NCBI GenBank assembly: GCA_965237565.1
Contig: OZ250145.1
Span: 955,529-1,019,528 of the forward strand
Length of the DNA stretch: 64,000 bases
Direction: 5' to 3'
DNA from: Bdellovibrionales bacterium
Lineage (GTDB): Bacteria; Bdellovibrionota; Bdellovibrionia; Bdellovibrionales; UBA1609
Shown here: one piece after another, positions 1 to 6,225 of the stretch
Position numbering within the stretch: position 1 is the stretch's first letter
Layout: each line of letters begins with the position of its first letter
Position numbers and translations under genes: made by a program
Notes under the pieces: generated by a model
The model's input: the letters and a program-made list of their open reading frames with translations, nothing else
Told to the model about the DNA's origin: nothing
Databases searched by the model: none

Positions 1-2030
1 GTTTTTCAGAGAGATATCGAAGGGGTGAGACCTCCCATACCATTCATGTTTGGTGGGCGAGAAGACCTCATGTAGCAATGCGATTATTGATCTATGCCAC
101 TGTTTGCAAAAACACTTCAAAAAAAAATGTAGAAGTGATGAATCAGCTTTCTGTGTTGAATGGGAATGAAAAACTTTTAGAAAAAGCGAGACAATTTGTA
201 AAAGAAGGGTACGCTCGCACTCCGAAGATTTTGGATATGTTTGGAGGTGGAGGTACCATTTCCTATGAAGCTTTGAACCTTGGTTTGGATAGTTATTCGA
301 TCGACTCTAACGAACTTTCCGTTTTTATACAAAAAGCCCATCTGCAATATCGAAATGACATGAAAGAAGAGGATTTCATTGCCATTTTAAAAAAATCGGG
401 AGAGAGAGTTTTGAATCATTTGAAAAAACTTACGGCACCTATTTTTCCCAGCAGAAATCAAAAAAATGGCAAACAAACAACAAATTATCTTTGGGCATAC
501 TCTTATCCTTGCAAGCATTGTGGTGGGCAATTTTCTTTGAGCAAAAGATTTTGGCTTTCAAAAAAGAAAGAGCGACAGGCTTTTATTGATATTGGGGAAA
601 CTTTGGCAGGTCCTATATTTCATATAAAAAAAGGAAAAACAGCAAAGAATCAAACAAATTGGTTAAAAAAATCCAATGTGCTTCAGTGTCCTCATTGCCA
701 AAACAAAGTAAGCAATATTTCAGTGAAAAAGGCTAAAGAAATCTTGGTTGTTGAAGTGGTGAAGGAAAAAATTGGAAAAAGCTTTCAAAAAGGAAGGCAG
801 TTGGATCCAGAGATAATGAAAAAAATAAAACGTTTGGAAGACCTGTCATTGAAAGCCTTACAATCTCATCTTCCCAAATCAGACTTGCCGAAATGGTCTG
901 GGATCGTCAATCCTGCTTTATATGGCATCGAAAAACATGCAGATATTTTTCATCCAAGACAGAGGGTGACCTGCCTAGCATTATTAAAAGTACTGAAAGA
1001 TGAATACGATTATATTAGCCAAGAGGAAGGAACATCGACTGCAAAATATATCATCTCTTTGTTATCCGGCTTGGTGGATCAGGTTGTTGATTGGAACTCT
1101 AGAATGTCCATCTGGATACCTCAAAATGAACAGGTGGGGAGGGCTTTTTGCGGACCCGGCATATCAATGTACTGGGATTTTTGTGAAACAGACCCCGTAG
1201 CTTTTGGGCCATCCAATTTGCACGCAAAATTGAAGCGAATCATCAAAGGTGCGAAAGCAATAAAAAAATTGCATAAAAAAGGATATGTAAAGCATGCATT
1301 TGCCCAAAACCTTCCTTTTAAAGATAAAATGTTTGATGCGATTGTTACGGACCCGCCTTATTATGACAATATATTTTACACAGTACTTGCAGATAATTTC
1401 TATGCTTGGAAAAGGATGCTATTAAAACACGTTGAGCCAGAGCTATTTAAAAACGAGAGTACCAATTTTGAAAATGAATTGGTCGCATCCACTCAAAGAA
1501 AAGGAAGCAAAGCTCATAAGGATTATTGTATCAATCTTGATACAGCTATCAAGGAAGCTTCAAGGGTCCTGAAAGATGACGGAACCATGTCCTTTGTTTA
1601 TTCACATCGTTCCATCTTGGGCTGGGAAGCAATGATCCAAGCATTTAGACATTCTTCACTGTTTTTTACGAGCGTTCAACCACTTTCTATTGAAAGAAGG
1701 CAAAGGCCCAGAGCCATTCGTTCAGAAGCTGTGAATACTTGCATGGCCTTCATTGCAAAAAAATCTCATCAGGCAAAACTTCCCATATCAGTGGATGCAC
1801 TCCTATCAAAATGCAATGACATAATAAAGGGAAATTTTATCCATTCACTGCAAAGATTGGGCTGGCTGGGAGAAGATATTGCAATAGGACTGATGGCTCA
1901 AGCAGTTGCTTTGGTCTCGAATGCTATACGCATAGAGAACACTGATGACAAAGAAGCCCTTCTAGAAGTCGAAAAACTCATTGCCAAAAAATTTCCAAAA
2001 TTTACACTCAGTAAAAGAAAATCACTCTAA
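1..2030 (+). CDS. DNA methyltransferase with internal Zn-ribbon (COG1743 / DUF1156 type), 5' end outside window
   Basis: Frame is open from nt 3. 'HTIHVWWARRP' (DUF1156-type signature) is encoded at nt 36-68, upstream of the first ATG at 78. 'LDMFGGGGT' is SAM motif I. 'CKHCGG' and 'CPHCQN' form a CxxC...CxxC Zn-ribbon. 'VTDPPYYDN' is catalytic motif IV (DPPY). Confidence 0.8.
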   Translation, partial: FSERYRRGETSHTIHVWWARRPHVAMRLLIYATVCKNTSKKNVEVMNQLSVLNGNEKLLEKARQFVKEGYARTPKILDMFGGGGTISYEALNLGLDSYSIDSNELSVFIQKAHLQYRNDMKEEDFIAILKKSGERVLNHLKKLTAPIFPSRNQKNGKQTTNYLWAYSYPCKHCGGQFSLSKRFWLSKKKERQAFIDIGETLAGPIFHIKKGKTAKNQTNWLKKSNVLQCPHCQNKVSNISVKKAKEILVVEVVKEKIGKSFQKGRQLDPEIMKKIKRLEDLSLKALQSHLPKSDLPKWSGIVNPALYGIEKHADIFHPRQRVTCLALLKVLKDEYDYISQEEGTSTAKYIISLLSGLVDQVVDWNSRMSIWIPQNEQVGRAFCGPGISMYWDFCETDPVAFGPSNLHAKLKRIIKGAKAIKKLHKKGYVKHAFAQNLPFKDKMFDAIVTDPPYYDNIFYTVLADNFYAWKRMLLKHVEPELFKNESTNFENELVASTQRKGSKAHKDYCINLDTAIKEASRVLKDDGTMSFVYSHRSILGWEAMIQAFRHSSLFFTSVQPLSIERRQRPRAIRSEAVNTCMAFIAKKSHQAKLPISVDALLSKCNDIIKGNFIHSLQRLGWLGEDIAIGLMAQAVALVSNAIRIENTDDKEALLEVEKLIAKKFPKFTLSKRKSL

Positions 2031-2113
2031 CAAATATTATTTGTTTCAAGGCTCATCAAGAGAGATCACATCTTCAAGTTCAATGTGCTGTCGATCTTGT
2101 ACGTTGGTGGAGG
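2014..2113. repeat. 100-bp direct repeat, copy 1 (last 17 nt of methyltransferase CDS plus 83 nt downstream, ending tggtggagg)
   Basis: Identical by eye to 3635-3734. Its terminal tggtggag equals the CCA-end 8 nt of tRNA-Ala at 6150-6157. It is followed immediately by a G10 tract. Confidence 0.85.
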
Positions 2114-2126
2114 GGGGGGGGATTAA

Positions 2127-2327
2127 TTTCTGCAAAAGAAGATTTATCTTCTTTTATGCTACTTTGCGAAATACTGTGTACGAGCTTTAAGAAAAGCAGG
2201 AAGTGGAAGTACTTTTATAACCCAAGGTGTAGAGGAGATTGTTAGTCATCCTATAGGGTCAGCTATTTTAGGAAACACAGCTATTAAATTTGTATTAATG
2301 CAAAAAGGTGATTTAGATATTTTGTAG
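2127..2327 (+). pseudogene. C-terminal fragment of a VirB4/TraG-type conjugative transfer ATPase
   Basis: A 66-codon open frame with no plausible start: '...FAKYCVRALRKAGSGSTFITQGVEEIVSHPIGSAILGNTAIKFVLMQKGDLDIL*'. It matches the conserved tail pattern (RK..G......TQ...D...S.....I..N...K..L.Q) of conjugative-transposon TraG/VirB4 ATPases. Confidence 0.4.
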
Positions 2328-2412
2328 AAGAATTTAAAACTAAATAATCAAGAAGGTTTAAATTAAACAATGTTCTTTAACAAACGATGTGTTATACAAA
2401 TATAGAGATTTT

Positions 2413-3306
2413 ATGAAAAAAATAATGAATTTAGAAAAAACTATTCAAACTAAAATTTATAATATTCGTGACATGCAGGTAATGCTGGATAGGGATTTGG
2501 CAGAATTATACGAAGTAACCACTAAAAGACTAAATGAACAAGTCAAAAGAAATATTGAAAGATTCCCTACAGATTTTATGTTTCAAATAACTGAAGAAGA
2601 ATTTAAGTCTTTAAGGTCGCAAATTGCGACCTTAAAGACTGGCCGAGGAACACATAGAAAATATTTAGCTTACGCATTTACCGAACAAGGGGTAGCAATG
2701 CTATCCTCAGTGTTGAGTAGCAAAACGGCAATAAAGGTCAATATTCAAATTATTAAAATATTTGTTAGCCTAAGAAAAGCACTTTCTTCAAATATCTTAA
2801 TACGTAATAAAGTTGATCTTTTGGAGAAAAAACAACTAAAAACAGATAAAAGAGTAGAGCATATTTTAAGGGCTATTGAAAATGAAGAAGTTCAAATAAA
2901 GTCACAAATAATTTTTAATGGAAAAATTTTTGATGCTCACGCCCTACTGAGCAAGCTGATCAAAGGAGCAAAGAAAGATATTGTATTAATTGATAACTAT
3001 GTGGACGAAAACGTTTTGATACTAATTTCTAAAAGAAGGAAAGCTTGCAAGGCTACTATCTATACAAAATCTATAAACAAGGCTTTAAAATTAGATTTAG
3101 AAAAACATAACAAACAATATCCAGAAATTAAAATCAAAGTTTCTAAAAAATTCCATGATAGGTTTTTAATTTTAGATAAAAAAGAAGTTTATCATATAGG
3201 GGCTTCCTTAAAAGATTTAGGTAAAAAAATATGTGTTATTTCTAAGTTTGAAATCTTAACTAGTGTTATATTAAAAGTACTAAAACAATTAAGTTCTACA
3301 TTATAA
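2413..3306 (+). CDS. ORF6N (KilA-N-like DNA-binding) domain protein
   Basis: 'IRDMQVMLDRDLAELYEVTTKRLNEQVKRNIERFPTDFMFQIT...GRGTHRKYLAYAFTEQGVAMLSSVL' is the typical ORF6N core. The ORF opens at GTG 2389; I prefer ATG 2413. Confidence 0.7.
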   Translation: MKKIMNLEKTIQTKIYNIRDMQVMLDRDLAELYEVTTKRLNEQVKRNIERFPTDFMFQITEEEFKSLRSQIATLKTGRGTHRKYLAYAFTEQGVAMLSSVLSSKTAIKVNIQIIKIFVSLRKALSSNILIRNKVDLLEKKQLKTDKRVEHILRAIENEEVQIKSQIIFNGKIFDAHALLSKLIKGAKKDIVLIDNYVDENVLILISKRRKACKATIYTKSINKALKLDLEKHNKQYPEIKIKVSKKFHDRFLILDKKEVYHIGASLKDLGKKICVISKFEILTSVILKVLKQLSSTL

Positions 3307-3634
3307 TATAAGCCCTAATTGGTTGCAAATTTCAGCCAGTTAAAAAGAGAAAACTTCTACTAAGAAAATAACTTTTTGGAGATTGCAAATTGTGATATCT
3401 AGACTAAAATTTAAAACAGGAAGCTAATATTCTGCCATTTAGCCTTAAGAAAGATTGCTGTGAAGGAACCTATAATCACGACCTTTTAGTCCATAAAGTA
3501 AAAAATATTATCTAACTAGCATGATGATAGGCCTCTCACTTTTAGCTCGCGACATGACATATTCATCTACAATAGGTACAAATTTCACGGACACTGAAAT
3601 TGCAGAAAAAAGACAAAAACACTCAAAAGAATAC

Positions 3635-3734
3635 AAAGAAAATCACTCTAACAAATATTATTTGTTTCAAGGCTCATCAAGAGAGATCACATCTTCAAGT
3701 TCAATGTGCTGTCGATCTTGTACGTTGGTGGAGG
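3635..3734. repeat. 100-bp direct repeat, copy 2
   Basis: Identical by eye to 2014-2113. The ORF-track entries 1981..2190 and 3521..3772 share a peptide only because both read through this repeat. Confidence 0.85.
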
Positions 3735-4004
3735 ATGGTAGATATCCCCGCCAAATTTCTTTTCCATTTTAGATCGGGTGGACACAAAAATTTATTTCTT
3801 TATTATCTTTGCTTGTGCAAATTTTTCTAAAAGAGTTGAACTTGGATGATTAGCAAGAGAAACCAGCTGATTAATAAGAGCCACAGGGACAAGAGCATTG
3901 TCATACGTATCATAACTTTAGTCTTGGAATAATGAGTCCTGTGGAATATAAAAAAAGTTAAAGATTTTTATTGAATAACTCTGAATATATAGCACAATTT
4001 ATAC

Positions 4005-4493
4005 ATGAATTTTTTAAAAGTCAAAGTCCTTATATTTTTTTTGGGTCATTTCTTATTGATTGGAGTTCTTCATGCTGAAGACAAGAAAAATTTAATTCCT
4101 TTGATCAAAAAAAATCTTCCGACAGAAATTAGAGAAGTATTTTTTGAGGCAAAAAATAAGCAAGATATTGAGTTGGCTTTGAAAAAACCAGATCTCGTAG
4201 AAGACCAAACCTATTTTTATATCATAGCAGGATTTAAATATGCACTATCAATAACATTTAATAAAAATGATATTGAAAAAATTAGATTCTATTTACCAAA
4301 AAGTGGAGATCCATATTCTGTTTTTTCAGATAGTTTGTCTAATATTCCAAAGATTATGGAAAACAAAGGAACGCATGCAGAAGGAAGAGATTTTTCCACA
4401 ACGGATGATCAATTAGGCATCAAGCTAGTTTTTAGAAATAATTCTGAGAAAAATCTCAAAACTATAACACGCACAATTCAACAGAAAAAATGA
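4005..4493 (+). CDS. Secreted hypothetical protein
   Basis: N-terminal signal peptide 'MNFLKVKVLIFFLGHFLLIGVLHA'. Its stop overlaps the next start (ATGA), so the two genes are translationally coupled. Confidence 0.55.
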   Translation: MNFLKVKVLIFFLGHFLLIGVLHAEDKKNLIPLIKKNLPTEIREVFFEAKNKQDIELALKKPDLVEDQTYFYIIAGFKYALSITFNKNDIEKIRFYLPKSGDPYSVFSDSLSNIPKIMENKGTHAEGRDFSTTDDQLGIKLVFRNNSEKNLKTITRTIQQKK

Positions 4494-5599
4494 CACAAAT
4501 ATCCGCCTTGCTTTTGCTTTTTGTTTTTTCTATGCCGCCATTTGCAAACTCAAGTAAACGTTGCGAGTCTGTGCCTGTAAAAGATTCAAATTCTTGGCTG
4601 GACGATAATATGATGGAAATTAAGGAAGTGTTAGACAAAAGCTCGGCTGATTCTACACAAAAAATGAGAAACGCTTCATGTCGAAGCATTCCTCTAACAG
4701 AGGATGAGATTAATTCTTATTTTAATTCATTCAAATCAACAAGTAATGGAAATGTAATTAGTGTAAGCGGTGTTACTTTCGAAAATGAATCAAAAAAACT
4801 TATACAAATGTTTAATGAGCTAGTTACGAAATATACTTATTGGGGGAAACCTATGGAAACAATAGATGTTCAAAAAAAATATTCAATTAATCCCAAATGT
4901 AAAAAGGTAATTTGTGCAATAAAGAAGATCTTTGGGAAAACACTTGGTCCTAAGCTACTATATATGAAAACGAGATATGGGTTTAATAGCTCTCATCTTT
5001 CATATGACGTTGCATCACCACTTAATGATAGGGAATTAGAGAGGATTTTGATTGGAATAAGAAATTTTCCTCCATCTACTTTCCCCCTTAAACACACTCG
5101 GAGTCCAAAAACTACTGGAAATAAACAACTTATTAGAATACGAGGCCCCTCTCGTAGAGGTATAATAGCTAATGCAACTATGAAATATTTTGATCCATGG
5201 GAGCAACAAAGTGATCCTTATATGGATATTGCTGTTGTTCATGAACTGGGGCATTACATATGGGCAGAAAAAAAACTATCCAGTCTAACTTGGAATGCGT
5301 TTAGTGGTTGGGTAAACAAAGGTAGCAAGTGGGAATATACTAAGAAACATACATTGACATCTGACTATGCAACAAATGGTCCTGAGGAAGACTTTGCCGA
5401 ATCTGTTGTAGAGTATAGATATGACCCAATAGCACTCAAAAAGGCAAGTCTTGAAAAATATAATTTTATTAAGAATAAAGTATTTAATGATATTGAATAT
5501 GAAGATAGGTGTCCTTATCTTGCGGAGAATGAGGCGAATGATGCGGACCAGGGTACAACCGAAGGAAAAAAATATATAATAAGGATAATTTTTCAATAA
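4490..5599 (+). CDS. Secreted zinc metallopeptidase-like protein (HEXXH, gluzincin-like)
   Basis: Signal peptide 'MTQISALLLLFVFSMPPFANS'. 'VVHELGHYIW' is an HEXXH motif. Downstream 'EEDFAESVVEY' could supply the third Zn ligand Glu. Confidence 0.6.
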   Translation: MTQISALLLLFVFSMPPFANSSKRCESVPVKDSNSWLDDNMMEIKEVLDKSSADSTQKMRNASCRSIPLTEDEINSYFNSFKSTSNGNVISVSGVTFENESKKLIQMFNELVTKYTYWGKPMETIDVQKKYSINPKCKKVICAIKKIFGKTLGPKLLYMKTRYGFNSSHLSYDVASPLNDRELERILIGIRNFPPSTFPLKHTRSPKTTGNKQLIRIRGPSRRGIIANATMKYFDPWEQQSDPYMDIAVVHELGHYIWAEKKLSSLTWNAFSGWVNKGSKWEYTKKHTLTSDYATNGPEEDFAESVVEYRYDPIALKKASLEKYNFIKNKVFNDIEYEDRCPYLAENEANDADQGTTEGKKYIIRIIFQ

Positions 5600-5664
5600 T
5601 CTCATGTTTTATCTACTTGTTTTATCGAGCCCCGAAGGCATCTTGACGAGAACTGTCATTAAAT

Positions 5665-6144
5665 CTTCCCTTTAAAGATAAAATGTTTGATGCGATTGTT
5701 ACGGACCCGCCTTATTATGACAATATATTTTACACAGTACTTGCAGATAATTTCTATGCTTGGAAAAGGATGCTATTAAAACACGTTGAGCCAGAGCTAT
5801 TTAAAAACGAGAGTACCAATTTTGAAAATGAATTGGTCGCATCCACTCAAAGAAAAGGAAGCAAAGCTCATAAGGATTATTGTATCAATCTTGATACAGC
5901 TATCAAGGAAGCTTCAAGGGTCCTGAAAGATGACGGAACCATGTCCTTTGTTTATTCACATCGTTCCATCTTGGGCTGGCTGGGAGAAGATATTGCAATA
6001 GGACTGATGGCTCAAGCAGTTGCTTTGGTCTCGAATGCTATACGCATAGAGAACACTGATGACAAAAAAGCCCTTCTAGAAGTCGAAAAACTCATTGCCA
6101 AAAAATTTCCAAAATTTACACTCAGTAAAAGAAAATCACTCTAA
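5665..6144 (+). pseudogene. Duplicated 3' fragment of the COG1743 methyltransferase gene with a 240-bp internal deletion
   Basis: Matches 1311-2030. The encoded 153 aa equal residues from 'MFDAIVTDPPYY' to the stop of the full gene, except for one E->K change and loss of 80 aa between two ttgggctgg microhomologies. The N-terminal two thirds of the gene are absent. Confidence 0.85.
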
Positions 6145-6149
6145 TAGGC

Positions 6150-6225
6150 TGGTGGAGCTGAGAGGGATCGAACCTCCGACCTCAACACTGCCAGCGTTGC
6201 GCTCTCCCAATTGAGCTACAGCCCC
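6150..6225 (-). tRNA. tRNA-Ala (anticodon GGC)
   Basis: Minus-strand read: GGGGCTGTAGCTCAATTGGGAGAGCGCAACGCTGGCAGTGTTGAGGTCGGAGGTTCGATCCCTCTCAGCTCCACCA, 76 nt. It folds as a cloverleaf with anticodon loop CTGGCAG, a G3:U70 alanine identity pair, a TTCGATC T-loop and an encoded CCA. Confidence 0.9.

Follow-up and report, generated by a model that had tools for sequence, protein, structure and literature searches.

A direct-repeat-bracketed islet of gene fragments beside tRNA-Ala in a small Bdellovibrionales genome, possibly built by nested insertions with long target duplication

We analyzed a 64,000-nt window of the genome of a Bdellovibrionales bacterium (assembly GCA_965237565.1, contig OZ250145.1, 955.5–1019.5 kb of the genome), whose left end carries an AT-rich islet bracketed by direct repeats and lying between an orphan DNA methyltransferase (methylase) gene and a tRNA-Ala gene. 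Coordinates are positions in this window unless a genome position is given. The host genome is one contig of 1.33 Mb with 38% GC, and its relatives are small-genome metagenome-assembled genomes (MAGs) labelled Bdellovibrionales. The genes, repeats and inserts that frame the islet are:

1–2030, + strand: orphan Type II DNA methyltransferase gene (DUF1156 + N6_N4_Mtase; Pfam PF06634, PF01555)
1307–2030, + strand: repeat A, the proximal copy of the outer repeat, consisting of the last 724 nt of the methylase gene and ending exactly at its TAA
1617–1865, + strand: paired TTGGGCTGG 9-mers (1617–1625 and 1857–1865) bounding the 240 bp missing from the distal copy, from alignment
2014–2113, + strand: first copy of the 100-bp repeat, comprising the last 17 nt of the methylase gene and 83 nt downstream (segment X), and ending in TGGTGGAG plus G
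2112–2121, + strand: G10 tract where the two 100-bp copies diverge, between the first of them and a truncated TraG tail
2114–3634, + strand: insert B, 1521 bp, a conjugative-element fragment
3635–3734, + strand: second copy of the 100-bp repeat, with a sharp left edge
3735–5660, + strand: insert C, 1926 bp, a patchwork with truncated genes near both ends
5661–6144, + strand: repeat A', the distal copy of the outer repeat, an orphan methylase tail with a 240-bp deletion and an E>K change
6145–6149, no strand assigned: spacer TAGGC, 5 nt, from the orphan-tail stop to the tRNA 3' end; the proximal copy has 75 nt of X in its place
6150–6225, − strand: tRNA-Ala(GGC) with encoded CCA (ARAGORN; Rfam tRNA, 61 bits)

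The direct repeats in the window pair 1307–1606 with 5661–5960 (99% identity), 1857–2030 with 5971–6144 (99%) and 2014–2113 with 3635–3734 (100%), and whole-genome blastn over 1.33 Mb returned no further copies of any repeat or insert piece. A preliminary description of this DNA had placed three repeats of the methylase tail beside tRNA-Ala(GGC), and repeat search, alignment and ARAGORN all bear this out. It had also reported that the second copy carries an E-to-K substitution and a clean in-frame 240-bp deletion at a 9-nt microhomology, in agreement with our three-way alignment of the distal and proximal tails, which contains one clean 240-bp gap, one G>A change (E>K) and 1–2 mismatches at the extreme 5' edge. 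The third copy is, as claimed, a perfect 100-bp match whose end is identical to the 8 nt at the CCA end of the tRNA. The parts of the islet run in the order A-X-B-aX-C-A'-TAGGC-tRNA, and the junction of segment X with insert C can be written X-TGGTGGAGG-C. Segment X has a near-genomic GC content of 40%; a role for it as a structured RNA or terminator was rejected (folding z −0.24, no Rfam match). We likewise rejected a diverged methylase copy to the left of the second 100-bp repeat, where an A-rich likeness is visible by eye and the scores of local and anchored alignments do not exceed those of shuffles.

The CCA end of the tRNA points toward the islet, 5 nt past the stop of the distal methylase tail. 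The TGGTGGAG 8-mers at 2105–2112 and 3726–3733 are identical to the tRNA end at 6150–6157, and all three junctions can be aligned as methylase end, a 75-nt or 5-nt spacer and TGGTGGAG, followed by divergence. Identity to the tRNA is limited to these 8 nt, with no extension at either junction. The 1.33-Mb genome has 32 occurrences of this 8-mer on that strand; the chance of finding it exactly at a repeat end is ~1e-4 per position, or ~1e-3 after allowing for the choices open to any reader post hoc, and chance is an unlikely source of the match. Within 60 kb there are no longer degenerate copies of the tRNA 3' end beyond those expected by chance, and TAGTGGAG, at about −148 and upstream of the methylase, was discarded as a remnant of a tRNA end, its tRNA alignment score falling under the shuffle median. 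The G10 tract at 2112–2121 is among only nine runs of G or C of at least 8 nt genome-wide. Two others (genome positions 591599 and 1102876) lie in or near other repeat-bracketed cassettes.

Between the repeats lies what the preliminary description had noted, namely a conjugative-ATPase fragment, an ORF6N gene and two genes for exported proteins in AT-richer DNA: GC content is 29% in insert B (2114–3634) and 33% in insert C (3735–5660) versus 38% for the genome. The recognizable genes and gene pieces are:

2163–2354, + strand: TraG/VirB4-type conjugation ATPase tail of ~65 codons that lacks a start and contains a stop (NCBIfam TraC-F-type positions 672–711, E 9e-4)
2389–3306, + strand: intact ORF6N-domain gene, 305 aa (Pfam ORF6N, E 6e-36)
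3857–3958, + strand: rve-type transposase remnant, the last ~34 codons (...HNFSLGIMSPVEYKKS*), broken by stop codons; motif assigned by eye
4005–4493, + strand: gene for a 162-aa protein with a signal-peptide-like N-terminus, first of a conserved pair
4490–5599, + strand: gene for an exported HExxH protein, 369 aa, second of the pair

Inserts B and C have no sequence in common, and none of the insert genes has a paralogue in the genome. The TraG/VirB4 tail shares 67% amino-acid identity with a TraG P-loop gene of a related genome from the congener family (G022), in which the TraG tail and ORF6N gene have collinear counterparts (C2:1844068–1845699; 54–67% amino-acid identity) neighbored by serine recombinases, an ISL3 transposase and a type I S fragment. 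The ORF6N product matches the PADLOC defence candidate PDC-S05 (PDLC04869) over residues 12–300 of 306 (E 2e-113), making the gene a candidate for a single-gene defence protein. Its C-terminal part contains an HDRF...GASLKDLG motif that we judged by eye to be PLD-like, and its homologues in related genomes are shorter (130–194 aa). The 328 nt of insert B that follow this gene have no features.

In insert C, the 162-aa and 369-aa genes overlap by ATGA. A metagenome contig (L069, 1843–4205) carries a likewise overlapping pair at 43% and 45% identity, the first gene of which encodes 158 aa; this pairing of a small exported protein with an HExxH protein, with overlapping start and stop codons, is conserved in Bdellovibrio-like bacteria. 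Homologues of the HExxH protein are hypothetical lipoproteins of Bdellovibrio/Bacteriovoracaceae of ~530–630 aa, some with Pfam matches to Peptidase_M90, Mx or ATLF, and the aligned region ends at residue ~341 of 369 here versus 348 of 629 in a homologue; the local protein therefore lacks the C-terminal third (~200–280 aa) of its homologues. The possibility that the two genes are one split gene was ruled out, as in L069 a separate homologue of the 162-aa gene precedes a full-length second gene.

The methylase gene itself begins 111 nt upstream of the window and encodes an intact product of 711–713 aa that matches PADLOC MTase_II (PDLC03233) over its full length (E 1e-179). Upstream of it are a ferritin/Dps-like gene and RmuC, with no defence genes there. 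The methylase is missing from all 14 congeners compared and is therefore an accessory gene. Its protein cluster is a singleton whose nearest relative is 65% identical, and a scan of genome contigs found the relatives, at no more than 65% identity, as lone genes in unrelated housekeeping contexts with no tRNA alongside. Because these relatives are likewise solitary, we take the methylase to be a lone gene between the Dps-like gene and the islet and not the tip or edge of a multi-gene defence locus. A phase-variable methylase with silent cassettes, in the manner of a shufflon, was considered and rejected: the copies are direct rather than inverted, no recombinase lies nearby, and the silent distal copy lacks 80 conserved residues.

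The genome is poor in enzymes that could have moved such DNA. Only two tyrosine recombinases (PF00589) are encoded, at 19.6 kb and 613.7 kb of the genome, each more than 340 kb from the islet, and neither the islet nor the 64-kb window contains a PF00589 match, as the preliminary description had observed in finding no integrase in the window. Serine recombinases (PF00239) are absent from the islet, the window and the whole genome, and there is no intact rve transposase (PF00665) genome-wide. Genome self-comparison revealed no dispersed repeats, almost all repeats being local and direct.

The same self-comparison uncovered at least four other unique direct repeats of 72–175 bp that bracket inserts of 2.8–5.4 kb. 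Each of these four repeats lies at a gene end, no tRNA is present at the sites, and each insert is AT-richer than its flanks. In genome positions, they are:

428 kb (428012–431284): 110-bp repeat, 3.1-kb insert
590 kb (590208–595907): 175-bp repeat, 5.4-kb insert
673 kb (673057–676110), ~282 kb upstream of the window: perfect 72-bp repeat, 2.9-kb insert of 31% GC
1099 kb (1098982–1101945): 101-bp repeat, 2.8-kb insert

The 673-kb repeat takes in the final 35 nt of an E2 acyltransferase gene; its cassette encodes MotA-like, HNH-like and OmpA-like proteins (Zorya-II-like), with exbD next to it. Six congeners show the empty site for this cassette: their E2 gene and exbD converge directly, with 15–240 nt between them. 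We saw no sequence motif shared by the junctions of the other long-repeat cassettes. The cargo of the remaining three consists of an 882-aa exported protein after an FMN-reductase gene at 1099 kb, three small exported proteins at 428 kb and a multi-gene block at 590 kb. Separately, genome positions 753055–763221 hold three copies of a ~170-bp repeat (48% GC, 96% identity) around AT-rich blocks of 6.1 and 3.5 kb with large unannotated genes, and may be another accretion site.

This architecture resembles insertion with long target duplication (LTD), a process described for defence genes, among them those of restriction-modification (Nobusato et al., 2000, as cited in PMC2853133). Published LTD repeats measure 46–423 bp, often lie over the 3' end of a gene and are accompanied by no mobility genes (Furuta et al., 2010, NAR 38:2428, PMC2853133); one example is a 46-bp repeat that covers 15 bp of a gene 3' end (PMC2853133). 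Like these, the islet repeats (100 and 724 bp) are far longer than transposon or integrase target duplications and consist of otherwise unique target sequence of more than 30 bp over a gene 3' end. The inserts, at 1.5 and ~2.0 kb, are short (<20 kb) and AT-rich and contain no functional integrase or transposase, the neighboring methylase is intact with an orphan tail left behind, and the cargo includes a defence-candidate gene (PDC-S05), the class for which LTD was described. The islet differs from the published cases in having two nested events, in a cargo made up mostly of gene fragments rather than a complete system, and in the 8-nt match to the adjacent tRNA end at its inner repeat edge. 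In addition, an empty site is seen for the 673-kb cassette of the same genome and not for the islet locus.

In a recombinase-poor genome that carries the same architecture elsewhere, in one case with empty sites in congeners, we therefore read the islet as two nested LTD insertions, of 724 bp and then 100 bp, that proceeded independently of any recombinase and were followed by decay, a reading in which our confidence is about even. What we observe are the direct repeats, a cargo of fragments, a lack of recombinases and an architecture that recurs in the genome; LTD at this locus and the following order of events are what we infer. The accessory orphan methylase would at the start have stood tail-to-tail with tRNA-Ala(GGC), its stop followed by TAGGC. 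In a first step, X and C (~2.0 kb, comprising the transposase tail, the exported pair with its truncated second gene, and spacers) would have entered right after the methylase stop and duplicated the last 724 bp of the gene, leaving the intact gene on the left and the orphan tail A' on the right, beside the tRNA. In a second step, B (1.5 kb, with the TraG/VirB4 tail and the PDC-S05/ORF6N gene) would have entered 83 nt past the stop and duplicated 100 bp; this 100-bp duplication spans the A/X junction made in the first step, and the insertion of B would therefore be the younger. Finally, the orphan tail would have lost 240 bp by slippage between the TTGGGCTGG 9-mers and gained 1–3 substitutions. 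The duplications themselves could have arisen by fill-in at a long staggered break or by a single crossover of a circle carrying homology to the target.

This order appears to be the one that gives the present layout in the fewest events. Nested LTD explains the end of the outer repeat at the stop codon, the intact expressed gene and the random-looking fragments without calling on a recombinase, and truncated genes at the insert ends (the TraG tail, the rve tail and the HExxH gene) would be the expected look of captured random fragments. The inner repeat shows no differences in 100 bp, and the outer repeat shows 1–3 in 484 bp plus the deletion, a divergence that agrees weakly with the proposed order. 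As it stands, the islet is a dead, non-autonomous patchwork rather than a working mobile element, and nothing in it can move by itself today; all that its direct repeats permit is RecA-type deletion, either of the entire islet or of B by itself.

Several observations weigh against the nested-LTD reading. The preliminary description had proposed looking in related genomes for an empty site in which the methylase stop directly precedes tRNA-Ala; no genome with such a site was found among the congeners and collections scanned, and the 14 congeners compared lack the methylase altogether. Neither the methylase 3' end nor the tRNA flank had an exact DNA match in the metagenome contigs scanned, segment X had none in viral contigs, and exact look-ups of the flanking proteins returned this genome only. 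The Dps side of the locus is scrambled in every congener genome compared, the deacetylase-CBS-tRNA-Ala block alone being conserved, and therefore no cross-species empty site can be reconstructed. The 724-bp outer repeat exceeds the published LTD repeats in length. The match of the 100-bp repeat end to the tRNA 3' end is left unexplained as a coincidence of ~1e-3, and B and C begin at the same nucleotide after the 8-mer. Segment X, given its near-genomic GC content, could be a native spacer rather than part of the first insert.

The 8-nt match and the position beside a tRNA were the basis for the preliminary description's suggestion of serial integration at a tRNA-proximal site followed by decay, and comparison with congeners supports one part of this suggestion. 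The deacetylase-CBS-tRNA-Ala(GGC) block is kept in at least four congeners, and the sequence beyond the tRNA-Ala 3' end is different in every one examined:

G009: truB-rpsO-pnp
G004 (L025:831–3701): N6-adenine methylase and MamI-type restriction endonuclease
G012: transposase-like remnant
G013 (L027:7560–12527; C1:910559–915526): 4.95-kb islet of 31% GC with AbiEi/AbiEii, an HI1420-type antidote, HTH genes and a trypsin-like peptidase

A perfect 19-nt repeat, TAATGGTGGAGCTGAGGGG, stands at both ends of the G013 islet; it consists of 3 nt of flank (TAA) and 16 nt of the tRNA-Ala 3' end. From this repeat and the variable flank it follows that the tRNA-Ala(GGC) flank is an insertion hot spot in the genus, and that the tRNA end is truly duplicated in one congener (G013). 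A gene for a 300-aa tyrosine recombinase lies 1.3 kb outside the distal 19-nt repeat in G013. Accretion of foreign DNA at a hot spot, followed by decay and with fragments as cargo, is thus supported, and it is the att-site mechanism that is not supported in the form proposed, the pattern being a better fit to LTD than to serial integration by an integrase: the repeats consist of methylase tail and downstream sequence, the 8-nt tRNA match has no extension, no usable recombinase is present, and there are parallels at sites without a tRNA.

In its fuller form, an att-site account would invoke integrase-mediated accretion at the tRNA-Ala 3' end, with TGGTGGAG as the leftover of an att core (the CCA end plus 5 nt of the acceptor stem). 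Elements including a TraG-bearing conjugative one would have integrated in tandem, after which the integrase and the bulk of each element would have been lost by deletion; aberrant excision followed by re-integration would have produced the methylase-tail copies, unless they arose by recombination between two forms of the methylase-spacer-tRNA junction, one with the 75-nt X and one with the 5-nt TAGGC. We regard this account as doubtful, while noting that it draws on real features of the locus: an 8-mer placed exactly at the repeat end, three junctions that align through it, a tRNA 3' end pointing toward the islet, and an insert (B) that is a piece of a conjugative element, together with the 19-nt tRNA-end repeat around the AT-rich toxin-antitoxin islet of G013 and the restriction-modification pair or transposase remnant at the same place in other congeners. 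As in islands linked to tRNA genes through tyrosine integrases, the islet abuts a tRNA 3' end, has a foreign composition, contains mobile-element debris and sits at a tRNA whose flank varies among congeners. Unlike such islands, it has no integrase, and the position beside the tRNA that an integrase usually holds is taken by a 484-bp methylase tail, which the account does not predict; the islet repeats methylase sequence rather than tRNA sequence, sharing 8 nt with the tRNA, and stopping there at both junctions, versus 19 nt in G013. Neither the islet nor the DNA within 340 kb of it contains an integrase or a fragment of one, and there is no tRNA-like remnant upstream of the methylase. Tandem site-specific integration does not predict the 92 nt of chromosomal flank, methylase end and X together, that follow B on its right, and the same repeat architecture recurs at non-tRNA sites in this genome. 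A degraded integrative conjugative element of the P-loop_TraG type, as in G022, is similarly only a partial likeness: the adjacent TraG tail and ORF6N gene are collinear with it, whereas the islet retains ~65 ATPase codons and no other transfer genes, relaxase or recombinase.

Segmental duplication of endogenous sequence offers a further route, which we judge improbable. The methylase 3' region and its downstream sequence would have been tandemly duplicated twice by unequal or illegitimate recombination and then eroded by deletion, the foreign pieces having arrived earlier or separately. Nearly all repeats in the genome are local and direct, as this route would have them, and the 240-bp deletion at a microhomology indicates that such erosion acts here. 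It would nonetheless require more events than nested insertion to produce X in one place and TAGGC in the other after the stop, as well as a sharp-edged methylase remnant of only 17 nt, and B and C are unrelated in sequence and therefore leave no duplicated filling between the repeats.

A variant that takes the shared starting nucleotide of B and C at face value is a speculation to which we give little credence. The duplicated unit would originally have run from the methylase interior through the spacer to a fixed point 8–9 nt inside the tRNA-Ala acceptor end, much as the 19-nt repeat of G013 extends into its tRNA, B and C would both have entered at that nucleotide, and one spacer would later have been altered. 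If this were true, a site-specific break at the tRNA 3' end would have been repaired by an LTD-type process, joining tRNA targeting and LTD, which are usually kept apart, and providing a defined break site at which the unexplained LTD mechanism could be studied. On that reading LTD would be the chief way in which this 1.33-Mb genome gains genes, and its LTD-type cassettes, at least five in number, together with its lack of a transposase or spare recombinase, would make it a natural system for the process.

An artefact, with the metagenome-derived assembly mis-joined here or a strain variant left uncollapsed, is very improbable even for a genome that is seemingly from an uncultured organism and has MAGs as relatives, given that the genome is a single 1.33-Mb contig, that the copies differ in specific ways (the 240-bp deletion, the substitution and distinct flanks on every side), that every junction is unique sequence, and that the longest unbroken identical stretch, ~300 bp, is short for a long-read assembler to confuse.

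With nested LTD as the preferred reading, the locus is best filed as a nested LTD-type insertion inside a tRNA-flank graveyard, and it matters chiefly as one cassette of this type among several. It would add a nested and unusually long (724-bp) case to the small catalogue of LTD. This reduced Bdellovibrio-like genome has no transposases or spare recombinases yet holds several LTD-type cassettes, one backed by empty sites in six congeners, and the entry of defence and secreted-protein genes into streamlined genomes could usefully be studied in this lineage. Annotation should treat as debris the TraG and rve pieces and the 153-codon frame next to the tRNA, and should treat the methylase as a lone gene rather than the edge of a multi-gene defence system.

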